Source: a virus (lineage: Duplodnaviria; Heunggongvirae; Uroviricota; Caudoviricetes). Taken from it: a DNA stretch of 13,415 nt. The stretch lies in IMG/VR virus record IMGVR_UViG_2654587746_000003, positions 1-13,415 of that record, one strand, 5' to 3'. The notes beneath the pieces are model-generated. The model did not search any database and was not told the DNA's origin. It saw only the letters and a list, made by a program, of their open reading frames with translations. Below, piece after piece: positions 1 to 11,808 of the stretch (positions are counted from its first letter, which is position 1; every line of letters begins with the position of its first letter). The translations under genes and the position numbers were made by a program.

Positions 1-290
1 GTGTTGCATTGACAGATTGAATCTACAGTAGCCTTTTTTAATATTTCATTTTCCATTTCAATACGTTGTAGCTTTTTCCTGAGCTCACGGATTTCAATTT
101 GTTCCGGGGTAATGGGGGAGGCTTTTGGTGTTTTTCCCTGCCGCTCATCACGTAATTGTTTCACCCATCGCGTCATTGTGGAAAGGCCGACATCCATAGC
201 GCTGGCTGCATCTGCCACGGTGTAATTCTGGTCAACGACCAGTTGAGCGGATTCGCGTTTAAACTCTGCGCTGAAATTTCTTTTTTTCAT
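1..290 (-). CDS. IS3-family transposase OrfA (helix-turn-helix / leucine-zipper protein), partial; C-terminus lies outside window
   Basis: Reverse-strand translation from ATG (complement of 288-290) gives [88 protein letters not shown]..., which I recognise as the IS911/IS3-group OrfA N-terminus. Not in the ORF track because it runs off the window edge. Confidence 0.8.
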
Positions 291-362
291 TATGGCACCT
301 GTGTTGTTCTGAGGTGAGCATATCACCTCTGTTCAGGTGGCCAAATTCAGTAAACCACTTCA
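1..362 (-). mobile_element. IS3-family (IS911-like) insertion sequence, terminal part only; element continues beyond window start
   Basis: Minus-strand orfA starts at 290. Upstream of it the element ends at 355-362 (CCACTTCA on + strand, i.e. 5'-TGAAGTGG on the IS strand), the TG...CA terminus typical of IS3-family inverted repeats. Exact boundary is +/- a few bp from memory of the IS911 end. Confidence 0.75.
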
Positions 363-676
363 GAGGGAAACGTTCAAAAGCAACCGCCGGGAAAATGAAG
401 GCTGAAGGGCAGAAAAAAGGTTATCCGGACATGAGTCTCGATAAAGCATGCGGTATTTATCACGGCATGCGAATTGAGCTTAAAGAACCAAATGGTAAAG
501 CCCCGACGAAAGAGCAGATCGCCTGGATGCGCAGGCTTAGAGAGGAAGGTTACTACGTCGTTCTTGCGTATGGTGCAGAACAAGCGATAACCGCCATCCT
601 GGAATACATAAGCCTTAAAAAGGGTGAGGCTATTGAGCATGTATTGAACGGCGACAAGTGGTTGTATGCTGCTTAA
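363..676 (+). CDS. VRR-NUC domain nuclease (PD-(D/E)xK fold), apparently 5'-truncated by the IS insertion; possibly a pseudogene
   Basis: Frame continuous with ORF 314..676, but 314-362 is IS terminal repeat, so the GTG at 314 is not a real start. The remaining protein has GYPDM...IELK (PD-ExK core) and a conserved VRR-NUC C-terminal half (PTKEQIAWMRRLREEGYYVVLAYGAEQAI). The usual ~30-40 aa N-terminal segment is missing. First in-frame ATG is 395, with a weak RBS. Confidence 0.6.
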
Positions 677-732
677 AATAATAAATTAATTAGTGCATAT
701 GTGCTCTTTGATATAGCGCACATTAACATCGG

Positions 733-898
733 GAGAATAATCGTGTCATTCAAGGCTAATTATGAATCGCTGGCATCGATCATGCCGCGTAATGAACAGG
801 AAGCAGATGCTGTAGTGGACCCGGTAATCGCTGAAATGAATGCTCGCCTGGAGGCTGAATTTGCAGCTGAGAATGAACATACCACCCAGGGCGACTAG
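733..898 (+). CDS. hypothetical small acidic protein (54 aa)
   Basis: GTG at 733 preceded by GGGAGA (721-726). Frame is that of ORF 701..898. No recognisable domain. Overlaps the next gene by about 26 nt. Confidence 0.3.
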
Positions 899-1502
899 GA
901 CTGTTTTTTGTGTCGGTAGCGGTCCGTCACTCACTCGTGAGGACTGTGCTGCTATAGAAAAAACTGGCTGTTCAATCATCGCGGTTAACAATTCCTGGCA
1001 GATGTTCGATGACATTTATGCCTTATACGCCGGTGATTTGTCATGGTGGAAGCAATACGGATCCACCATACCGGGAGGGAGATTCCGCAAAGTGACAGCC
1101 AACCTGGCGGCGGCGAAATCATTTTCGTTGGAGTACAGGCGATATTGTGGACCGGCGGAAGGGGTAAATAGCGGCGCGCAGGCTATCAGTCTGGCTGCTG
1201 AATCAGGGGCTGAAGTAGTGGTATTAGTCGGCTATGACTGTTCTCTGCAAAACGGCCTTCATTGGCATGGCGCGCACCCTCAAGCCCTACGGAATCCAAC
1301 GCAGGTGTCTATTTCAAAATGGCAACAGCAGTTCCTGGATACCCGCAAAAAACACGCAGATTTACATATTTTGAATGCAAGTAGGAGCAGTGCAATTCAA
1401 TGTTTCCCAAGAATAAATTTAGAGGCAGTGATCGCGTTATTATCGTCGGCAGTGGCCCAAGCGCCGCAAACTTTGTTGCGCCGCGCGGAGTGCCGATTAT
1501 AG
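873..1502 (+). CDS. DUF115 / GT42 (CstII-, Maf-like) Rossmann-fold protein, putative glycosyl- or nucleotidyl-transferase, paralog A
   Basis: N-terminal VFCVGSGPSL (GxGPS loop), IIAVNNSW, then VNSGAQAISLAAESGAEVVVLVGYD. This matches the motif order of CstII-type sialyltransferases and DUF115 proteins (IAGNGPSL ... ITSGVYMCAVAIALGY..YLSGID). Start taken at ATG 873 (MNIPP...); ATG 840 is the alternative. Confidence 0.55.
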   Translation: MNIPPRATRTVFCVGSGPSLTREDCAAIEKTGCSIIAVNNSWQMFDDIYALYAGDLSWWKQYGSTIPGGRFRKVTANLAAAKSFSLEYRRYCGPAEGVNSGAQAISLAAESGAEVVVLVGYDCSLQNGLHWHGAHPQALRNPTQVSISKWQQQFLDTRKKHADLHILNASRSSAIQCFPRINLEAVIALLSSAVAQAPQTLLRRAECRL

Positions 1503-2026
1503 CGGTCAATGGGGCCATCGACTGGCTTAACCGCGCTTCTTATTTTTTCACCCTTGATCCATCGCCAGACAATATGCGGCGCGTTGGTCGTGGCCGCCGT
1601 CGCCGTGGTGTTTGTTATTGCATGGCGCTACCCGATGTTAAAGAACGTGAGGTCAGAGACGGCGTTCTGTGCTTCCGTCGTGTGGCTGAGCGCGGCACGG
1701 AGCCAAAAAATACGAATTCTCCCGAGTGGTGGGCGTGGCGCTGGTCCGCACATTTCGGCCTTTGCGAAGATGAGAATGAAATTGCCAGCGGCAATAGTGC
1801 ATATGGTGCTCTGAACCTGGCTTTCCATATCGGATTCAAACATGTAGCCCTGGTGGGCGTTGACGCTACGCAAGAACCACGCGTTCATTCCGGCGGCACG
1901 CCAAAAAATCTAAGTCACCTGCCTTTGTTATTCCAGTCTGCGCGTGAACAGATTGACGTTGTTTCATGCGGGAAAATGGGAGGTATTCCGCAGATGACTC
2001 TTAAAGAATGGCTGAAGAATACATGA
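1400..2026 (+). CDS. DUF115 / GT42-like Rossmann-fold protein, paralog B
   Basis: [25 protein letters not shown], and [24 protein letters not shown] give the same motif order as paralog A. AGGAG at 1383-1387. Overlaps paralog A by 103 nt out of frame. Stop TGA 2024-2026 overlaps the start of the next gene. Confidence 0.6.
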
Positions 2027-2700
2027 TGGCACCCACAATTTATCACCGTATCGACGGTACCAAATACAGGAATGTCTGGGTTGTTGGTGATCTGCATGGT
2101 TGCTACACCAGACTGATGTCCGAACTCCATCGTGTGGATTTTGACCCGGCGCAGGATTTACTGATATCGGTCGGCGACCTTATCGATCGCGGTACTGAAA
2201 ATGTCGAATGTCTGGAACTATTGCAGATGCCCTGGTTCAGGGCAGTGATGGGGAACCATGAGCGGCTGATGATTGATGCGTTAAGTCCAGATGGCAACGT
2301 GAATAACTGGCTAATGAATGGCGGACAATGGTTCTTCATGCTGGACACTGATCAGGAAATATTAGCCTGGGCGCTGGTGGAGCTGGTAAAGCGTCTGCCC
2401 TATATCATTGAGTTGAACACCGGGCAAGAAACTATCGTTATAGCCCATGCCGACTATCCGGATAATGAATACCAATTCGGTAAGGAGGTACCGCTTTTCA
2501 ACGTTGTCTGGGCGCGCGAGCGTATCAGTGATTCGATGGATGATATTGGTGGCGAAATTTCGGGCGCAGATCGTTTTATCTTTGGTCACACTCCGGTGAA
2601 AAGCCCGAAGACATTCTGGAATCAGCAGTATATCGACACTGGTGCCGTATTTTGCGGAAACCTGACATTGATGAAAGTGAAAGGTGATGGTGCAGCATGA
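2023..2700 (+). CDS. Ser/Thr protein phosphatase, calcineurin-like metallophosphoesterase (lambda PPase / PrpA-PrpB family)
   Basis: Motifs GDLHG, GDLIDRG and GNHE in the canonical order. N-terminus [22 protein letters not shown] aligns with lambda phosphatase as I remember it. Start ATG 2023 or 2026 (ATGATG overlapping the upstream stop). P1 also encodes a phosphatase (ppp), but I cannot confirm orthology. Confidence 0.85.
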
Positions 2701-3398
2701 AGATTGCTTTAGTTTTTCGCTCTGGTGGTGACTATAACGCTTCCGATGTGCAGTGGCTGGTTAATCAACTGCCAAAAGGCTATGAAATTATTTGCCTGAC
2801 AGACCTGAAGCGTTTACATGTACCTGGCGTCAAAGTTGTCCCATTGATCAACCAGTGGCAAAAGTGCCGTGGCTGGTGGGCGAAAATCGAGTTGTTCCGA
2901 CCGGATATAACCGATGATCTGTTCTATCTGGATTTGGACACGGTTATTGCCGGTGATATACGCCCAATCCTAGAGCATCCACCAACCAGCTTCACCATGC
3001 TTAGGGATTTTTACCATCCACAATATCGTGGCAGCGGTGCCCTGTGGATACCAAATAGTGTTAAAGCGCATATCTGGAGTTCATTCTGGCAAGATCCGGA
3101 AGGTTGGATTTCTCGTTGTGTCACTACTGAGTGCTGGGGTGACCAGGGGTTCTTACGAAAGGTTATGGGCGATGATACACCAGCATTTCAGGATCTGTAT
3201 CCAGGATGGTTTGTAAGTTACAAGGCCGATGTTGTGGAACCTGGTTCAAAATATGCGAGCGCGCGTTACTCCAGGGGGAATGGGGCATTACCAAAAGACT
3301 GCCGAATAATCTTTTTCCACGGCAAACCGCGACCTCGCGAAGTGTCAGAGGATTGGCTTCCCCTTATCAGCTCATTTTTTGAGCGAGAATCAGAATAA
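2697..3398 (+). CDS. GT8-like (GT-A fold, DxD) glycosyltransferase, putative
   Basis: ATGA overlap with the phosphatase stop. [29 protein letters not shown] resembles the GT8 signature (K..L...L.....YLDxDxxV.GDI). Later DQGFL and FFHGKPRP resemble the GT8 DQD..N and H.G..KPW motifs. Motif-level only. Confidence 0.5.
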
Positions 3399-3399
3399 T

Positions 3400-3416
3400 A
3401 TTGCTCTAATAATTCC
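3400..3416 (+). promoter_or_regulatory. P1 C1-repressor operator-like site overlapping a sigma70-like promoter
   Basis: ATTGCTCTAATAATTCC matches the remembered C1 operator consensus ATTGCTCTAATAAATTT at 14/17. TTGCTC (3401-3406), 17-bp spacer, TAAAAC (3424-3429) gives promoter-like spacing. Confidence 0.55.
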
Positions 3417-3447
3417 ATATTTTTAAAACGTGATGTACACTCATCAC

Positions 3448-3464
3448 ATTTTTTATTAGAGCAA
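3448..3464 (-). promoter_or_regulatory. second C1-operator-like site, inverted orientation
   Basis: Reverse complement of 3448-3464 is ATTGCTCTAATAAAAAA (14/17 to consensus). Forms a 13-bp inverted repeat with the 3400 site. Lies between the putative start site and the RBS (AAGGTG, 3470-3475) of the 3480 gene. Confidence 0.5.
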
Positions 3465-3479
3465 TCTACAAGGTGCACT

Positions 3480-3698
3480 ATGTGGCCATTCCGACGGAAA
3501 TATCACTACTGGCTGATCGCCTTTGTTACGCCGACCGGCGGTATCAGGCATGTAATCACCAGGTATCGCAACAAGAGACTCACCTTAGCCAGAATTTTAC
3601 AGGCTGCCATAGGTGAGGGACTGGATACAAATCGCGTAGTCCTTCCACCTTCATACTTAGGAAAAATGACCGAAGCACAAGCTAATACGGAACTTTGA
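3480..3698 (+). CDS. hypothetical protein (72 aa)
   Basis: ATG 3480 with AAGGTG RBS. Stop TGA 3696-3698 is 1 nt from ATG 3700 of the next gene (coupling). No recognisable domain. Confidence 0.45.
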   Translation: MWPFRRKYHYWLIAFVTPTGGIRHVITRYRNKRLTLARILQAAIGEGLDTNRVVLPPSYLGKMTEAQANTEL

Positions 3699-3699
3699 A

Positions 3700-4962
3700 A
3701 TGAGCACTTCAGCACAAAACCAATCAATCGAAAATGTATCTATCCCTGACGTCCTGAATGCCGGTATCCCAGCCATTATCCAGAACATCCGGGCCGCGCA
3801 ACGCCGCGTTAGTTGTGATGACCTCACAGCGCGTTTTTTTGATAATGCGGTTCAGTCAGCGGAGATGCTTCACGCACAGCTTATTGATGTTTATAACGCA
3901 GAAGCTGATAGCCATAACTCCCTGGTAGATGCAGCTGAAAATATGCAGTTGGATCTCGGTCTGAAGGGTAAAGAAATTGAAGAGCTTCAGCTACAAATTG
4001 AACATTTGAAACGCCAGCAACAGGACGCGATCGACGATGCGACGCATGACGCCAACCAGCGTGCTGATAATGCCGAACGTATAAGCATTGAGCTGGAAAC
4101 AAAACTCAATGAAATGACCGCGATGGTTGAACTGCGGAACTCACAGATTTCAACGCTAAAATCTCAATATAAAGAGATCATGAAACTTGATCCTTTTAAC
4201 CTTGAGAAACGCTATAACAAAGCTAAAAGCGAGCGACAGGAACTGCGTAAGCAGGTCGCCGACCTTAACCAACAGCTCAAAAAAACTATTAAAGATGCAA
4301 GCGAAGCGCGCGTGGCATTTGCTAATAAAAAAGCAGAGGTTACCGCGCTGGTTAATGAGAATGCCAAATTTGCGACGCTCAAGAAGGAAATGTATGGCAT
4401 TACTGAGCGCCGTTTCCCTGCAAGCAAACTTCATCCGACGTTAGGGCAAATCTCCTTCTTCCCGCGCCTCCTGGCTTATGGGATCTCATCGCCTAAAGAG
4501 TTCAATAACGAGCGTCCTTATATCGTTTCTAAGCTGGACTTTGCTTATCAGTTCTGCTGCGACATGGGCTATGCCATTGATATCCGAATCAACGAATGGT
4601 TGATGCCAAACTTCCAGCCGTTGGCAATTTTCCGCGAGTTCCAGCCGGAAGGTTGGGTAGAGTTCTTCCATGAATTGATCTGTAAAGAGATGGAAAGCCG
4701 CCGCCCGGAATTGGTCCGTCGAGTTGAGTGGGCGCAAGAGGTTATGTTGGCAGATGCAGAGCTGCCGTTCGAACCGGAATTCATTGATGATCTGGCAACT
4801 AAAGGGTTGCATACCCTGTTTGATGTGGTTACCCGCCGTCATGAGCAGTTGGTTGTCGAATTGGGTTTAGAGGAAACTGCGGCAAGAAGACTTCTCGATG
4901 TTTGCTATGCACGTAGCGAGGCATGGGAAAAAGAGAACGGCGGCACTATTTACGTTCGCTGA
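3700..4962 (+). CDS. hypothetical protein (420 aa): N-terminal ~230-aa predicted coiled coil, C-terminal globular domain of unknown function
   Basis: Long ORF. N-terminal half is heptad-like and charged (ELQLQIEHLKRQQQDAIDD...RQELRKQVADLNQQLKK). C-terminal half is aromatic and Cys-containing (ERPYIVSKLDFAYQFCCDMGYAIDIRINEW...). No motif I can assign. Confidence 0.7.
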   Translation: MSTSAQNQSIENVSIPDVLNAGIPAIIQNIRAAQRRVSCDDLTARFFDNAVQSAEMLHAQLIDVYNAEADSHNSLVDAAENMQLDLGLKGKEIEELQLQIEHLKRQQQDAIDDATHDANQRADNAERISIELETKLNEMTAMVELRNSQISTLKSQYKEIMKLDPFNLEKRYNKAKSERQELRKQVADLNQQLKKTIKDASEARVAFANKKAEVTALVNENAKFATLKKEMYGITERRFPASKLHPTLGQISFFPRLLAYGISSPKEFNNERPYIVSKLDFAYQFCCDMGYAIDIRINEWLMPNFQPLAIFREFQPEGWVEFFHELICKEMESRRPELVRRVEWAQEVMLADAELPFEPEFIDDLATKGLHTLFDVVTRRHEQLVVELGLEETAARRLLDVCYARSEAWEKENGGTIYVR

Positions 4963-4981
4963 TAGTTACAGTGTCACTTTT

Positions 4982-5017
4982 AATGCTGGTGGAGTGCTCC
5001 CACCAGCATTTTTTTCG
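4982..5017 (+). terminator. rho-independent terminator
   Basis: AATGCTGGTGGAG (4982-4994), short loop, CTCCCACCAGCATT (4997-5010), then TTTTTTT (5010-5016); 20 nt after the 420-aa stop. Confidence 0.8.
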
Positions 5018-5034
5018 TCCAATGAGGAGGGCAT

Positions 5035-5541
5035 TTGAGTATTTTCAATAAACACGCACACCAGGAACGTCCGTACATCGTCATAGTAGATATTGATGGG
5101 ACGATATCAGAGGCAACGGAAGACAGGCTGCATTTACTTCCACCACCTGGCAAAGGTGCATTAACAGAGCACTGGAACGAGTTTAACCTTGCCTGTGACA
5201 CTGATGCTCCCATCACTCCAGTTATTGATATGGTGCGCCAGTTGTCCGGCATTTACACCCTCTGGTTTGTAACCGGGCGCTGTGAGATAGCCAGGGATAA
5301 AACACGAGCCTGGTTGCGTAAGCACGTAACAAATGGGGCTGAGCCTTTGCTATCTATGCGTCCTGCCACCGATGACAGAAATGACGGTCCAGCAAAGATT
5401 GATCTCCTGAAGAAAATTGGTCTAAGTAAAATTGCGTTCGCGCTGGAAGATAAGATTGAAGTGGCGCGTGTTTTCAGGAGTCACGGCGTACTTACGTTAA
5501 TGGTCAGGGAGTATGAAAACGCGCTTCTCCATCAACAATAA
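5035..5541 (+). CDS. HAD-superfamily phosphatase (DxDGT motif I), nucleotidase / polynucleotide 3'-phosphatase-like
   Basis: TTG 5035 preceded by GAGGAGG (5024-5030). IVIVDIDGTIS is HAD motif I; a later WFVTGR is motif II-like. Exact start uncertain. Confidence 0.65.
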   Translation: MSIFNKHAHQERPYIVIVDIDGTISEATEDRLHLLPPPGKGALTEHWNEFNLACDTDAPITPVIDMVRQLSGIYTLWFVTGRCEIARDKTRAWLRKHVTNGAEPLLSMRPATDDRNDGPAKIDLLKKIGLSKIAFALEDKIEVARVFRSHGVLTLMVREYENALLHQQ

Positions 5542-5571
5542 TTACTCTAATAAATCTTGATTTTTAAAACA
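5541..5571 (+). promoter_or_regulatory. C1-operator-like site plus promoter-like -35/-10
   Basis: ATTACTCTAATAAATCT (5541-5557) is 15/17 to the C1 consensus. TTACTC, 17-bp spacer, TAAAAC (5565-5570) has the same architecture as the 3400 element, including the shared ATTTTTAAAAC. Confidence 0.5.
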
Positions 5572-5639
5572 GAGAAAATGAAAATAAAAACATGCCGCAA
5601 GGCGCGGCATGTATCCAATCAATCTCAGGAGCTGAAAAT

Positions 5640-5726
5640 ATGAACACGGCATTCAAAATCATTATGGCCGCGATCTATTTCTGGCTGTTCTCTATCACTT
5701 TTGGCAGCATTGTCGCGCATGGGTAA
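5640..5726 (+). CDS. small hydrophobic peptide (28 aa, one predicted transmembrane helix), not in ORF track
   Basis: AGGAG (5627-5631), 8-nt spacer, ATG 5640. Translation MNTAFKIIMAAIYFWLFSITFGSIVAHG, stop TAA 5724-5726. Confidence 0.45.
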   Translation: MNTAFKIIMAAIYFWLFSITFGSIVAHG

Positions 5727-5805
5727 GGGGAGTATATTAGCCATTTGGAACCCCACGGTCTCTTGCGGGTTTAATTAAGAACCCGCAAGAAAAATACGAA
5801 TTGGG

Positions 5806-8800
5806 CTATATTTTTCCGCCTACGCCTTTAAACTTCTCAATAAACGAGACGATTTTCTGGAAAACTGCCTGTTTTTTCGTTTTATATTGCGGATTCAACG
5901 GACTAAGTTTTGGTAATGTTTCGTTTAATTCTGTGCCATTTTCGGTGGCGTATTCGCGTTTTAAAGACATGCGAATATAGCGTTTTGCTGCATCTTCATT
6001 GAGATTTTCTTCTTTTATCAATGCTTCTGCTTCACGTTGCTGTTCGCGTTGAGCAAACGTAAAGAATGCCTCAATGATACTGGCTTTGTCTGGTAAATCA
6101 TCCAGGTTCGTTTGCTGAATAAAATCGACCACCAGGCCCTCTTTCGCCCGGTTCCCCAGGCTTGAACGAATTAAGCGTTTGACCTCTTCGATCATTTCGC
6201 CCTTGCCTTTATTTTGTCTGTTGTGTTCGAAAATCAGTCCAAGGATATAATCCAGGTTTATTTCCTGAGACTTCAGCAAATCGACCTCAAAAACTACGTC
6301 ATCCCAGTCAGTGGTTGATTTCTCTTTTTTCTCAGCTTCTTTCTCACGGCGCTGCCAGTCGCGAATATCGTTATAGGCAGAACGATAATCCTGAATCTTG
6401 CGATCAGCAGGGAGACGAATTGTTTGCAATTCAGCGAACTTTTCATTATCCACATAATGTTCTGCTTTGAATTTTTCTACCGCAACAGGATCGCTAAGAT
6501 CGATTTGTTGCAGGGCTTTTAGCGTGGCAAATTCATCATAGTTTTGCAGGATGTTCTCGGCACGCAGGTATTCGCCAAACAGTTTAACGAAGTCTTTCTT
6601 CTCTTTTTCACTTTCAATACTGGTAGGGTCAGGGAACCGTTGTTCCAGTTCTGAAACTACTGTCATGAAGCCGCGTTTAGCTTCACCAGTGGCAGCATCA
6701 GTAAAGCCTTCCATATACTCTGCATAACTCTTTTCTAAAACCACATTTTTGGTATTTTTGTCACCAAACAGCGTTATGGCATCAATGGTTGAGCGTTCCA
6801 GATCCCGGAACGTGACAATATTACCGAAGGTTTTAGTCGCGTCATAAATGCGGTTGGTGCGGGAGAATGCCTGCATCAGGCCGTGAAAACGCAAGTTTTT
6901 ATCGACGAATAGCGTGTTTAATGTTGGAGCATCGAAGCCGGTTAAAAACATCCCCACGACAATTAGCAGATCGATATCCTGATTTTTAACCCGCTGGGCT
7001 AAATCACGATAGTAGTTCTGAAAACCGTTACTGTCGGTGCTAAAGTTAGTTTTAAAATGGCTGTTATATTCACGAATTGCAGCGTCCAGAAACTCTTTAG
7101 CACTGCTGTCCATTGCGCTGGTATCAAAAGTTTCATCGGAAATTTCACCAATGGCATTTTGTTCTTCATTGGCGGCAAAGGAGAAGATTGTCGCAATACG
7201 CAGCGGTTTATAGGTAGCCGATTTATTAGCGGCTTCCTCTTGTAACCGTTTAAACGTCGCGTAATAGGCTTTCGCGGCATCCACGCTGCTCACTGCCAGC
7301 ATGGCATTAAAACCTTTGGAGCCAGGGAAAGTACGGTGGGTTTTCTGGCGGAAGTTATTCAGGATATATTGCGTAATTTCCTGAATACGCATGGGATGAA
7401 GGAACGCCTGCTGATTTTCAGCCGCACTCAGTTTTTTCTCGTCGGTTTCTGTCTCTAAAGACTTAAATTGTGGCCGCACATCGTTATAGTCCACCTTGAA
7501 TTTGAGCACTTTTTCATCACGAATCGCATCGGTAATCACATACGAATGCAATTCACGACCAAATACGCTGGCGGTCGTTTCTGAGCCTAAAGCGTTTTCC
7601 GGGAAAATAGGTGTGCCGGTAAAACCAAACTGATAATAGCGTTTGAATTTCTTCTTCAGGTTTTTCTGCGCTTCTCCAAACTGGCTGCGGTGGCATTCAT
7701 CAAATATAAACACCACTTGCTGATTGTATACAGGCAGATCGCTTTCTGCTTTCATCAGGTTATTGAGTTTCTGAATAGTAGTGACGATAATTTTGTTATC
7801 GTCCTTATCCAGATTTCGTTTAAGACCTGCGGTATTTTCCGAGCCGTTGACGCTGTCTGGCGAAAAACGCTGATATTCCTTCATGGTCTGGTAATCGAGG
7901 TCTTTCCTGTCGACCACAAAGAAGACTTTATCAATAAAGTCCAGCTCTGTTGCCAGACGCGCGGCTTTAAAGCTGGTGAGGGTTTTACCAGAACCGGTAG
8001 TGTGCCAGATATACCCACCGCTTTCCGGTTTTGACCAGTTCTTCGCTGTAAAGGAACTCTTAATTTTCCACAGAATGCGCTCGGTGGCGGCAATCTGGTA
8101 CGGTCGCATTACCAGTAGTGTCTGACTGCTGTCAAAAACGCTGTAGTTCACCAGAACATTAAGCAGAGTATGTTTCTGGAAAAAGGTAGCGGTAAAGTCT
8201 TTGAGGTCTTTAATCAGCGTGTTGTCTGATTTAGCCCAGTTCATGGTGAAGTCAAAACTGTTTTTATCGCGCTTTGTGGTGTTGGCAAAATAACGGGTAT
8301 CAGTGCCGTTGGAAATGACGAACAGCTGCAGATACTTAAACAGGGAATTTTCGCTGTTAAAACTCTCTTTACTGTAACGATGTATCTGGTTGAAAGCCTC
8401 ACGAATCGCCACCCCGCGTTTTTTTAGTTCGATTTGCACCAGCGGTAAACCATTAACCAGGATCGTGACGTCATAACGGTTAGCATGAGAACCCGTCTGT
8501 TCAAACTGCTGGATAATCTGCACCTTATTGCGCATGAGATTCTTTTTATCTATCAAATAGATGTTCTCAAGACGCTCGTCATCAAAAATAAAGTCGCAAA
8601 TATAGTCGATATGGATTTTACGGGTCTTATCCAGAATGCCATCGCTCGGGTTATCCAGATACTGCTCCGTGAAACGCCGCCACTCGCTGTCATTAAACAC
8701 CACACCATTGAGGTTCTGAAGCTGTTCCCGAACATTGGCTAGCATCGCCGACTGTGATTTTACGGATATAAATTCATAGCCCTGATTCCGCAGGTCCTGA

Positions 8801-8922
8801 ATCAGTTCACGTTCCAGGTCCGATTCGCTCTGATAGCTGTCGCCTGTTTGCTCAGCTTTGATGTACTTATCAAGAACGATAAAGTTATTGGATTCAGCAA
8901 TGGTGTGTGTCTGATGAGTCAT
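5806..8922 (-). CDS. hsdR: Type I restriction enzyme R subunit (HsdR), Type IC family size (1038 aa)
   Basis: Walker A GSGKT, DEAD-box-like FDECH, helicase motifs ([12 protein letters not shown]). The 1038-aa length and the partner genes match the EcoR124/EcoprrI (IC) family. RBS AAGGA upstream of ATG. Confidence 0.93.
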
Positions 8923-9043
8923 AGCGCATCCTTTGTGCCGTCTGGCAAGGGCCGGAAGGGAGTTAAGGGCGACTTCCAGCGCGTAAAAAATAGTCTATAT
9001 ACTGACCGGGTGTTAAGGTGGCCCGGTCGGTAGCAATGGTCAA

Positions 9044-10245
<1,202 letters not shown>

Positions 10246-10249
<4 letters not shown>

Positions 10250-11808
10250 GATTGCGCCTTGTCACCTTCAATCTTTGCCACAATTGCATCAATATCTTTA
10301 CGCAACTGGTCGATTTTGCTGACCGTGGTTTTCAGCTCAGCATTCAGCTCAGCAATATCGATAATTTCGCGGTTATCTTTCGCTTCCACATAGCTGCTCA
10401 CCGACAGGTTATAGTCATTAGCAACAACGGCCTCAAACGCGACAGATTTCGCCAGATGAGCAACATTTTCTTTGCTGGCAAATACCTGCATAATCTGGTT
10501 GATATGGGCATCGGTCAGGATATTGTTGTTAGTCTCTTTTTTGAACAGTTCGCTGGCGTCAATAAACTGAACTTTGGTATCCGTTTTATGTTTAGACAGC
10601 ACCAGAATATTTACGGCAATGGTGGTGCCAAAGAACAGGTTCGGTGCGAGTGAAATCACGGTTTCGACATAGTTATTGTCGACCAGATACTGACGGATTT
10701 TCTGCTCTGCGCCGCCACGGTAAAAAATACCCGGGAAGCAGACAATCGCAGCACGACCTTTGGCCGAAAGATAGTTCAGCGCATGTAGTACAAACGCAAA
10801 GTCAGCTTTGGATTTGGGGGCCAGAACGCCAGCCGGGGCAAAACGTTCATCGTTAATCAGCGTCGGGTCATCGCTGCCAATCCATTTCACCGAATACGGT
10901 GGATTAGATACGATGGCGTCAAACGGTTTTTCATCTCTGAAGTGCGGCTCAGTCAGTGTATTACCCAGCTTGATATCAAACTTGTCGTAGTTGATATTGT
11001 GCAAAAACATGTTCATACGCGCCAGGTTATAGGTCGTATGGTTGATTTCCTGACCGAAAAAGCCTTCTTCGATGATGTGGTTATCAAACTGTTTTTTCGC
11101 CTGCAACAACAGTGAGCCGGAACCCGCTGCCGGGTCGTAGATTTTGTTAACGCTGGTCTGCCCGTGCATAGCCAGTTGTGCAATCAGCTTGGAGACGTGC
11201 TGCGGTGTAAAGAACTCACCGCCTGACTTACCGGCATTTGCGGCATAGTTAGAAATCAGGAACTCATAGGCATCACCGAACAGGTCAATCTGATGTTCGT
11301 TGAAGTCACCAAGTTTTAACCCTTCAACCCCTTTCAGAACCGCTGCCAGGCGGGCATTTTTATCTTTAACGGTGTTACCCAGGCGGTTACTGGTGGTATC
11401 GAAATCAGCAAACAAACCTTTGATGTCAGCTTCTGAAGGGTAACCGTAAGCAGAACTTTCGATAGCAACGAAGATGCTGTTTAAATCTGCATTCAGTCTG
11501 TCATTGGTCTTTGCTTTCGCAGCTACGTTGCAGAAAAGCTGGCTTGGGTAGATGAAGTAGCCTTTGGTTTTGATGGCATCGTCTTTAATGTCATCAGTAA
11601 TTACGCTGTCATCCAGTTTCGCATAACAGATACTGTCATCACCGGCTTCAATATAGCTGGAAAAATTTTCGCTGATAAAACGGTAGAAAAGTGCGCCCAG
11701 AACGTATTGCTTAAAATCCCATCCATCGACCGAACCTCTGACATCGTTGGCAATTTGCCAGATTTGACGATGAAGCTCTGCACGTTGTTGAATACTTGTC
11801 ATTTTCAT
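10246..11808 (-). CDS. hsdM: Type I DNA methyltransferase M subunit (HsdM), N6-adenine, 520 aa
   Basis: AdoMet motif [11 protein letters not shown] and catalytic motif IV NPPY. Length fits Type IC HsdM. A possible promoter -10 TAGAAT (complement of 11843-11848) lies upstream. Confidence 0.93.

Follow-up and report, generated by a model that had tools for sequence, protein, structure and literature searches.

What is the function of the pmgN-pmgO-pmgP-ppp-pmgQ operon of P1-like phages? The question is raised by IMG/VR record IMGVR_UViG_2654587746_000003, a tailed-phage (Caudoviricetes) sequence of which the entire stretch of 13,415 nucleotides (nt) was analyzed here (the window). Bacterial genetics relies heavily on phage P1, and resistance genes are spread by P1-like phage-plasmids, yet this operon accounts for approximately 2.5 kb of conserved P1 enzymes to which no role has been assigned. 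The operon in the window belongs to a P1-like phage-plasmid and was identified by nucleotide identity and synteny with P1. Window bases 600 to 3700 aligned end to end with 19 P1-type phages, including P1 and P7, at 98.3 to 98.8% identity. The operon itself (701 to 3398) was 98.6 to 98.8% identical to its P1 and P7 counterparts, with gene order, overlaps, and C1 operators all shared. Coverage against the P1 record AF234172 (79.3 to 82.2 kb) was 100% at 98.6% identity, and the annotation matched gene for gene. In P7, the same genes are named hdmA-hdmB-hdmC-ppp-hdmD.

The answer that we tentatively favor, as possible rather than probable, is that three of the five products, PmgO, PmgP, and PmgQ (the trio), may form a cytoplasmic protein-glycosylation cassette, most likely decorating virion proteins or other exported proteins. 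The block itself is known and named, and the fold-level idea is already carried by existing RefSeq and PHROGs labels, which include “alpha-2,3-sialyltransferase” for pmgO, “glycosyltransferase” for pmgQ, and “metallophosphoesterase.” A preliminary description of this DNA had presented the gene combination as unfamiliar in phages. That holds for the pattern of the trio but not for the block, which already carries the name pmg in P1; it is a conserved and annotated part of P1, under a gene name that conveys no function. Literature searches brought up no study of what these genes do or of glycosylation in P1 virions and no description of the PmgP-PmgQ(-PmgO) trio, its fusions, or its methyltransferase partners. 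The placement of the trio in head modules across several hundred clusters and its domestication beside adhesins were likewise undescribed in the searched literature.

Folds of the predicted transferases

PmgQ matched no Pfam family at an E value of ≤1, including PF01501 (Glyco_transf_8), and no NCBIfam model. A profile of 34 homologs compared with PDB sequences retrieved Gat1 (6mw5; E = 1.9e-6) and GlyE (5gvv; E = 2e-3). The AlphaFold2 model of PmgQ had a predicted local distance difference test score (pLDDT) of 94.6. Its top 50 Foldseek matches in the PDB were all GT8-type proteins (Gat1, glycogenin, WbbM, GlyE, LgtC, and 3tzt) except for the UGGT catalytic domain, with a probability of 1.00, E values of 1.7e-9 to 7e-7, and template modeling (TM) scores of 0.5 to 0.63. 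Three motifs stood out among the 34 homologs. D79-L80-D81-T82 was invariant, and its counterparts in the alignment were D-A-D in Gat1 and D-S-D in GlyE; G148-D149 was invariant and Q150 nearly so, aligned with the G-D-T-G of Gat1; and H208-G209-x-P211-R-P213 was invariant, although in the hidden Markov model (HMM) alignment its His and that of Gat1 lay 2 residues apart. Profile and model together identify PmgQ as a predicted distant GT8-type (glycogenin/Gat1/LgtC-like) GT-A enzyme, and its DLD motif bears out the GT8-like DxD core of the preliminary description.

PmgO and PmgP are single-domain proteins of 209 and 208 amino acids (aa), respectively, and a GSGPS motif was found in each. The two family profiles aligned over their full lengths (hhalign, probability of 98%, E = 8e-14), so PmgO and PmgP are paralogs, as had been proposed for these two carriers of the GxGPS Rossmann signature. 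PmgO belonged clearly with phrog_4603 (E = 4e-74). Both proteins matched the Pfam family PF01973 (MptE-like, DUF115) in the C-terminal motif only, with 23.1 bits for PmgO and 20.9 bits for PmgP, below the gathering score of 34.6; at the family level, PF01973 was matched at an E value of <0.01 by 40 of 50 PmgO-family and 45 of 51 PmgP-family members. A superfamily-level relationship to PF01973 is thereby indicated by sequence. The best structural match of both proteins was Maf (5mu5), a protein O-glycosyltransferase, and they share the fold of CAZy family GT42 (CstI/CstII). Judged from the predicted models, the fold alone does not separate a glycosyltransferase from a pyrophosphokinase.

Searches of PDB sequences with single PmgO and PmgP sequences and with profiles returned noise only, and no GT42 chain appeared at an E value of ≤10 in the profile searches. 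All that a structure search of BFVD yielded was MptE-like phage proteins without names, and PADLOC and NCBIfam had no model for PmgN, PmgO, PmgP, or PmgQ. GT42 membership of PmgO and PmgP was rejected at the sequence level, where only a weak local match to a CstII motif was obtained. The earlier designation of the pair as DUF115/GT42-like survives as a statement about fold and superfamily, and not as one about the PF01973 gathering score or GT42 sequence membership. Profile and structure comparisons of the three transferase-like proteins, which had been proposed as a check, found the expected folds, but neither the PF01973 nor the Glyco_transf_8 threshold of Pfam was reached. No membrane segments were found in any of the five operon proteins (PmgN, PmgO, PmgP, Ppp, and PmgQ).

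Conservation of the trio and its partners

Loci were surveyed in two sets, 26 from species-level genomes or contigs and 25 distance-selected from IMG/VR. The IMG/VR set came from a scan led by a distant homolog; another scan gave near-identical P1 copies only. PmgP and PmgQ were present together in all 25 IMG/VR loci, and PmgO was present in 21 of them. PmgP and PmgQ were also nearly always adjacent in the species-level loci, where gaps in PmgQ fell mainly at contig ends or in loci in which only a distant PmgO-like gene matched. By these gene contents, the conserved unit appears to be PmgP plus PmgQ, usually with PmgO. PmgP was 53 to 62% identical between P1, Ochrobactrum, and Pseudomonas prophages, and an HMM scan of 1.84 billion representatives yielded 645 PmgP-family clusters. 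The named hosts of trio-bearing phages were all Gram negative.

Fusion proteins joined these families in several orders (PmgO-PmgP, PmgP-PmgQ, PmgQ-PmgP, PmgQ-PmgP-methyltransferase, and methyltransferase-PmgP), and in phage XacN1 a TylF-type O-methyltransferase domain was fused to a PmgQ-like protein. Genes inside or beside the trio encoded class I S-adenosylmethionine (SAM) methyltransferases, FkbM-type methyltransferases, and proteins with weak Nucleotid_trans and GT1-like matches. These methyltransferase- and glycosyltransferase-like partners point to the stepwise assembly of a (methylated) glycan rather than to pterin- or thiamin-type chemistry. Genes for nonulosonic acid or cytidine monophosphate (CMP)-sugar synthesis were found in none of the flanks of the surveyed loci.

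The phosphatase followed a different distribution. Ppp aligned almost end to end with the lambda phosphatase (1G5B; E = 1.3e-94; Ppp residues 6 to 224 with residues 3 to 221), matched Pfam Metallophos with 59.4 bits (cutoff, 21.5), and carried all metal-binding motifs (GDLHG, GDLIDRG, and GNHE). It is, by sequence, an ortholog of the lambda phosphatase, in keeping with the lambda-type Ser/Thr phosphatase first described here. In the survey, ppp and pmgN were restricted to E. coli/Salmonella-type P1-like phages, with pmgN found only alongside ppp. Four distant P1-like contigs of ~90 to 100 kb carried pmgO, pmgP, and pmgQ and lacked ppp. In phage D6, ppp lay among lambdoid small genes without an adjoining trio. 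The distribution identifies Ppp as a lineage-specific insertion between pmgP and pmgQ, outside the conserved machinery. Ppp as a dedicated partner of the trio was rejected on the same distribution, and with it the earlier view of the phosphatase as an integral part of a four-gene combination, since it was absent from the trio in every locus not of the E. coli/Salmonella type.

Genomic placement of the trio

The placement of the trio was tallied in 21 nonredundant non-P1 loci from the two upstream genes and the downstream genes. Upstream genes most often encoded the major capsid protein (Phage_capsid in 7 of the 21 loci), portal, prohead protease, terminase, or lysis proteins; downstream genes encoded gp6-type connectors, head-completion, HK97 gp10-like, or tail-completion proteins, or terminase. 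The remaining loci had the trio between lysis genes and terminase. The typical order was protease, capsid, (PmgO) PmgP (methyltransferase) PmgQ, and connector, and stop/start overlaps with the neighboring genes were frequent. The trio was also found in the virulent E. coli phages EP_H11 and IME392 and in jumbo Xanthomonas/Stenotrophomonas phages.

In one of these jumbo phages, XacN1, the trio (ORF373 to ORF375, all annotated “hypothetical”) lies in the stretch from ORF375 to ORF372 (locus L193, 4303 to 10220), and ORF373 combines the TylF-type O-methyltransferase with the PmgQ-like domain. The gene next to the trio encodes a 1,088-aa protein with a weak PKD-domain match, below the Pfam cutoff. 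No fewer than two glycoproteins were found in XacN1 virions, which their authors ascribed to two other glycosyltransferases and not to the trio (PMC5852040). D3-like Pseudomonas phages carried a PmgO-like gene alone, inside the head-tail gene block. In D3 (locus L194, 3959 to 4555), this gene follows the major capsid gene and is split into orf6.5 and orf7 in the record. In PAJU2 (ORF010 to ORF012; locus L195, 3474 to 5417), it follows a head-tail adaptor gene, was deposited as a “structural protein,” and is succeeded by genes for a 275-aa protein and a SAM methyltransferase.

Nonphage chromosomal copies were found as well (loci L091 to L095, at about 3300 to 9300, and loci L102, L110, and L112). 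In five Enterobacteriaceae species (Pseudescherichia type), the chromosomal trio surrounds an inverse autotransporter of the invasin type that bears 7 Big_1 repeats. Serratia- and Buttiauxella-type loci had PmgQ-PmgP between holin and endolysin, together with a DUF2514 protein, and the Serratia locus (L110) had Big_1, lipase, lipoxygenase, and PmgO-like genes nearby. Such an arrangement may serve secretion of the holin/endolysin type, the cargo being glycosylated.

Proposed function and competing explanations

In the cassette that we propose, PmgQ would transfer a hexose, with retention, from a host uridine diphosphate (UDP)-hexose. [quoted passage not shown] Host CMP-Kdo is put forward as the donor because no donor-synthesis genes occurred in the loci and the hosts were exclusively Gram negative; use of CMP-Kdo by Maf enzymes has been demonstrated in E. 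coli (bioRxiv 10.1101/2020.06.03.131540). Acting jointly, the three enzymes would assemble a short glycan, and the co-encoded methyltransferases of other phages would also O-methylate it. The acceptor would be made during lytic growth and would most likely be virion proteins or other exported proteins, given the placement in head modules, the occurrence in virulent phages, the XacN1 glycoproteins, and the adhesin-linked chromosomal copies. A parallel exists in mycobacteriophages, whose own glycosyltransferases are established to glycosylate virions, as summarized in PMC12363180. We infer glycosyltransferase activity for PmgO and PmgP, the donor sugars, and a protein acceptor on these grounds.

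Several results weigh against this proposal. At the sequence level, hhalign of the PmgO and PmgP families against CstII (1RO7) gave only a local T-S-G...S-G-I-D match with a probability of 5 to 8%, and His188 of CstII was not opposite a conserved His of either family. A term search of the text of both P1 cryo-electron microscopy papers (capsid DarA/Hdf and tail-baseplate) found no mention of a glycan. Knockdown of each operon gene by CRISPR interference left P1 plaquing intact (PMC10695390), and pmgN to pmgQ and ppp were nonessential in the deletion survey PMC9024508, as cited by PMC10695390. The operon of P1 has its own C1-controlled promoter and does not lie within a late head operon. PmgP retained 53 to 62% identity across phages with unrelated capsid proteins, a conservation that a universal acceptor (e.g., lipid A-Kdo) fits better than a capsid-specific one. 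The main text of PMC9024508, including its virion-proteome table, does not name PmgO, PmgP, PmgQ, or Ppp.

A bolder form of the proposal is doubtful. It holds that the trio is a widespread O-glycosylation system for virion or exported proteins in phages of Gram-negative hosts, building a hexose/Kdo-type, often methyl-capped glycan from host nucleotide sugars only; that P1 particles are glycosylated; and that bacteria have domesticated the trio for adhesins with Ig-like repeats. If true, glycosylation of phage virions, established in mycobacteriophages, would be a trait of phages of Gram-negative hosts as well, which bears on how the immune system recognizes therapeutic phages. Protein glyco-engineering in E. 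coli would gain a new class of small Maf-like transferases, and an annotation could be given to about 645 orphan protein clusters.

Among the alternatives, a change to a cell-envelope glycan survives best, and we consider it unlikely. The acceptor of the added Kdo and/or hexose would be lipid A-core or some other glycan linked to lipid, modified at the cytoplasmic face. With a similarly low likelihood, the P1 receptor (glucose of the lipopolysaccharide [LPS] core) would be altered, limiting superinfection or the loss of progeny on debris. Kdo2-lipid A as a universal acceptor would account for the high conservation of PmgP, and the named hosts, all Gram negative, are compatible with it; across these hosts, however, the same 53 to 62% identity spans LPS cores that are unrelated. 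GT8 includes LPS and lipooligosaccharide enzymes, and LgtC and WbbM were among the Foldseek matches of PmgQ, but PmgQ ranked nearer to GT8 enzymes that modify proteins (Gat1, glycogenin, and GlyE) than to LgtC and did not match the Pfam model Glyco_transf_8, which represents the Waa outer-core enzymes. The proteins also lack segments for membrane association. Expression of the other C1-controlled operons of P1 begins soon after derepression, and the C1-controlled promoter of this operon means that it, too, is possibly on at that stage. Repression by C1 in the lysogen, under which no lysogenic conversion is expected, speaks against an envelope function. Most other phages have the genes within head or late operons, where they lack a promoter of their own and would come too late for surface remodeling, and virulent phages carry the trio as well.

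Two further explanations are improbable. According to one, PmgO and PmgP would be MptE/TPK-like pyrophosphokinases or nucleotide handlers that make or destroy a small molecule for takeover or antidefense, with Ppp as the matching phosphohydrolase. MptE-like is the sole Pfam match of PmgO and PmgP, and Ppp is related to ApaH-type hydrolases of diadenosine tetraphosphate (Ap4A). The constant partner, however, is a GT8-type transferase, even in fusions; the accessory genes encode sugar O-methyltransferases and further glycosyltransferases; genes for pterin, thiamin, or nucleotide synthesis were absent nearby; Ppp is not a conserved partner; and no PADLOC model of a known or candidate defense protein matched.

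The other, which we hold to be just as improbable, is host takeover, with a host protein or defense component glycosylated in place of virion proteins. The conservation of PmgP could then be explained by a conserved target in the host, and the enzymes are soluble and cytoplasmic. The genes are nonessential in the laboratory K-12 host, which would also suit this explanation; laboratory K-12 carries few defense systems. Most phages, however, place the trio in head modules and not in early or antidefense regions, the domesticated chromosomal copies adjoin adhesins, and the enzyme pair would be without precedent in such a role.

We know of no sugar modification of P1 DNA. Such a modification, serving antirestriction, is very improbable: phage glycosyltransferases, including Kdo-adding ones, do hypermodify DNA late in infection (bioRxiv 10.1101/2023.12.21.572611), and late expression would suit modification before packaging, but the known systems pair the glycosyltransferase with a hydroxymethyl- or hydroxy-pyrimidine pathway (C5-methyltransferase plus 5mYOX or ThyS-like; bioRxiv 10.1101/2023.12.21.572611) that was not seen in the flank tallies or in the P1 region, and antirestriction was unchanged in 24 viable P1 single-gene knockouts (PMC9024508), a survey that PMC10695390 cites for pmgN to pmgQ and ppp.

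Operon structure, regulation, and neighboring genes

The preliminary description of a coupled operon with ATGA overlaps was accurate: both stop/start overlaps are present (2023 to 2026 and 2697 to 2700), as in P1 and P7. It had placed the operon at 873 to 3398, of which the right edge stands. The left edge lies at about 644 to 700, ~200 nt further left, and the 3′ end of pmgN overlaps the start of pmgO, adding a fifth small gene. The overlap of pmgO and pmgP spans 103 nt (1400 to 1502) in different frames; the PmgO tail encoded there (~23 aa) was unconserved among PmgO homologs, and the N terminus of PmgP, with its GSGPS loop, was conserved. By these comparisons, the operon consists of real conserved genes and not of chance open reading frames. 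Its GC content (48 to 52%) was slightly higher than that of the flanks (45 to 46%). Features are listed in Table 1.

Table 1. Positions of the operon, its predicted control elements, and its neighbors in the window
Feature	Position	Strand	Basis or predicted product
IS3-family transposase OrfA-like frame	3-293	-	Runs off the window edge; Pfam HTH_Tnp_1, E = 4e-14
pmgM (VRR-NUC)	314-676		120 aa in the window, 192 aa in P1
Predicted sigma-70-type promoter (P1 PpmgN)	644-679	+	P1 annotation mapped by alignment
C1 operator Oppp (former Op83)	683-699	-	Monovalent operator annotated at the homologous P1/P7 position
pmgN (hdmA)	701 (P7 model) or GTG 743 (P1 model, preceded by GGGAGA)-898	+	Small acidic protein, phrog_2350
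pmgO (hdmB)	873 (840 in P1 record)-1502	+	Predicted Maf/MptE/GT42-fold enzyme, PmgP paralog
pmgP (hdmC)	1400-2026	+	Predicted Maf/MptE/GT42-fold enzyme; most conserved member of the cassette
ppp	2023 (2008 in P1 record)-2700	+	Predicted lambda-type Ser/Thr (PPP-family) metallophosphatase
pmgQ (hdmD)	2697-3398	+	Predicted distant GT8-type (retaining GT-A) glycosyltransferase, 233 aa
C1 operator OpmgRa	3400-3416	+	Consensus match and P1 annotation
Hairpin and T-run	3430-3447		Terminator-like
C1 operator OpmgRb	3449-3465	-	Consensus match and P1 annotation
pmgS	3700-4962		420-aa long coiled-coil protein
pap	5035-5541		“P1 acid phosphatase”; Pfam HAD_PNKP, E = 3e-11
C1 operator OpmgT	5541-5557		Consensus match
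hsdR, hsdS, hsdM	5806-11808	-	EcoR124-type (type IC) restriction-modification; 1,038, 401, and 520 aa, respectively

Upstream of pmgN, a consensus scan located the predicted promoter as GCGACA-17-TAAAAT (651 to 679), and Oppp differed from that of P1 at 1 of 17 bases. The C1 operator consensus had 3 matches across the window, OpmgT being the third, versus 0.1 expected by chance. The terminator-like hairpin is bracketed by OpmgRa and OpmgRb. These operators mark the operon as C1 repressed, by prediction. The idea that it is a moron for lysogenic conversion was rejected on this repression, on a GC content barely above that of the flanks, and on the overlaps with structural genes in other phages.

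At the left window edge, the window differs from P1 in that an insertion sequence (IS) fragment truncates pmgM immediately upstream of the operon. The IS seems to have severed pmgM and to lie between the pmgN operon and the P1 late promoter LPpmgL. Downstream, PmgS had weak SMC/Rad50/LmuB-like matches. The best Pfam match of Pap was the HAD domain of polynucleotide kinase-phosphatase, which suggests a nucleic acid 3′-phosphatase or repair-type role rather than that of a generic acid phosphatase. The hsd system occupies the interval from pap to phd/doc, which contains pmgT...humD in P1. According to the P1 record, the junctions are similar to the hsd flanks of EcoDXXI/R124, and because of this resemblance the position looks like a recurrent cargo-exchange site.

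Comparison with known systems

A functional parallel to the proposed cassette is found in the mycobacteriophages Che8, Corndog, and Myrna, whose cassettes use host sugar donors and decorate capsid and tail-tube proteins, as summarized in PMC12363180. The trio differs in that its hosts are Gram negative and in that its virion glycosylation is a proposal. Freeman et al. in 2023 reportedly found methyltransferase genes accompanying the mycobacteriophage glycosylation cassettes. To our knowledge, the families of GT8-like and Maf/MptE-fold enzymes have not been described in those cassettes.

In P1 and P7 themselves, the operon carries the labels “putative morphogenetic” and “head morphogenesis,” both derived from map position alone. 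Ppp shares an end-to-end alignment and all metal-binding motifs with the lambda Ser/Thr phosphatase (NinI, 1G5B). The lambda gene lies in the nin region, whereas ppp lies between two glycosyltransferase-like genes, and we know of no biological substrate for either phosphatase. With the GT8 enzymes (glycogenin, Gat1, GlyE, LgtC, and WaaJ/WaaR), PmgQ shares the predicted GT-A fold and the DxD motif, and its G-D(-Q) loop and C-terminal His...P-K/R-P motif may correspond to theirs; it differs in being shorter (233 aa), with a TM score of ~0.57, an identity of 12 to 17%, and no Glyco_transf_8 match. PmgO and PmgP would stand in a comparable relation to the Maf flagellin nonulosonic acid glycosyltransferases, of which 5mu5 has 632 aa and extra domains, whereas the two phage proteins are single domains of ~200 aa.

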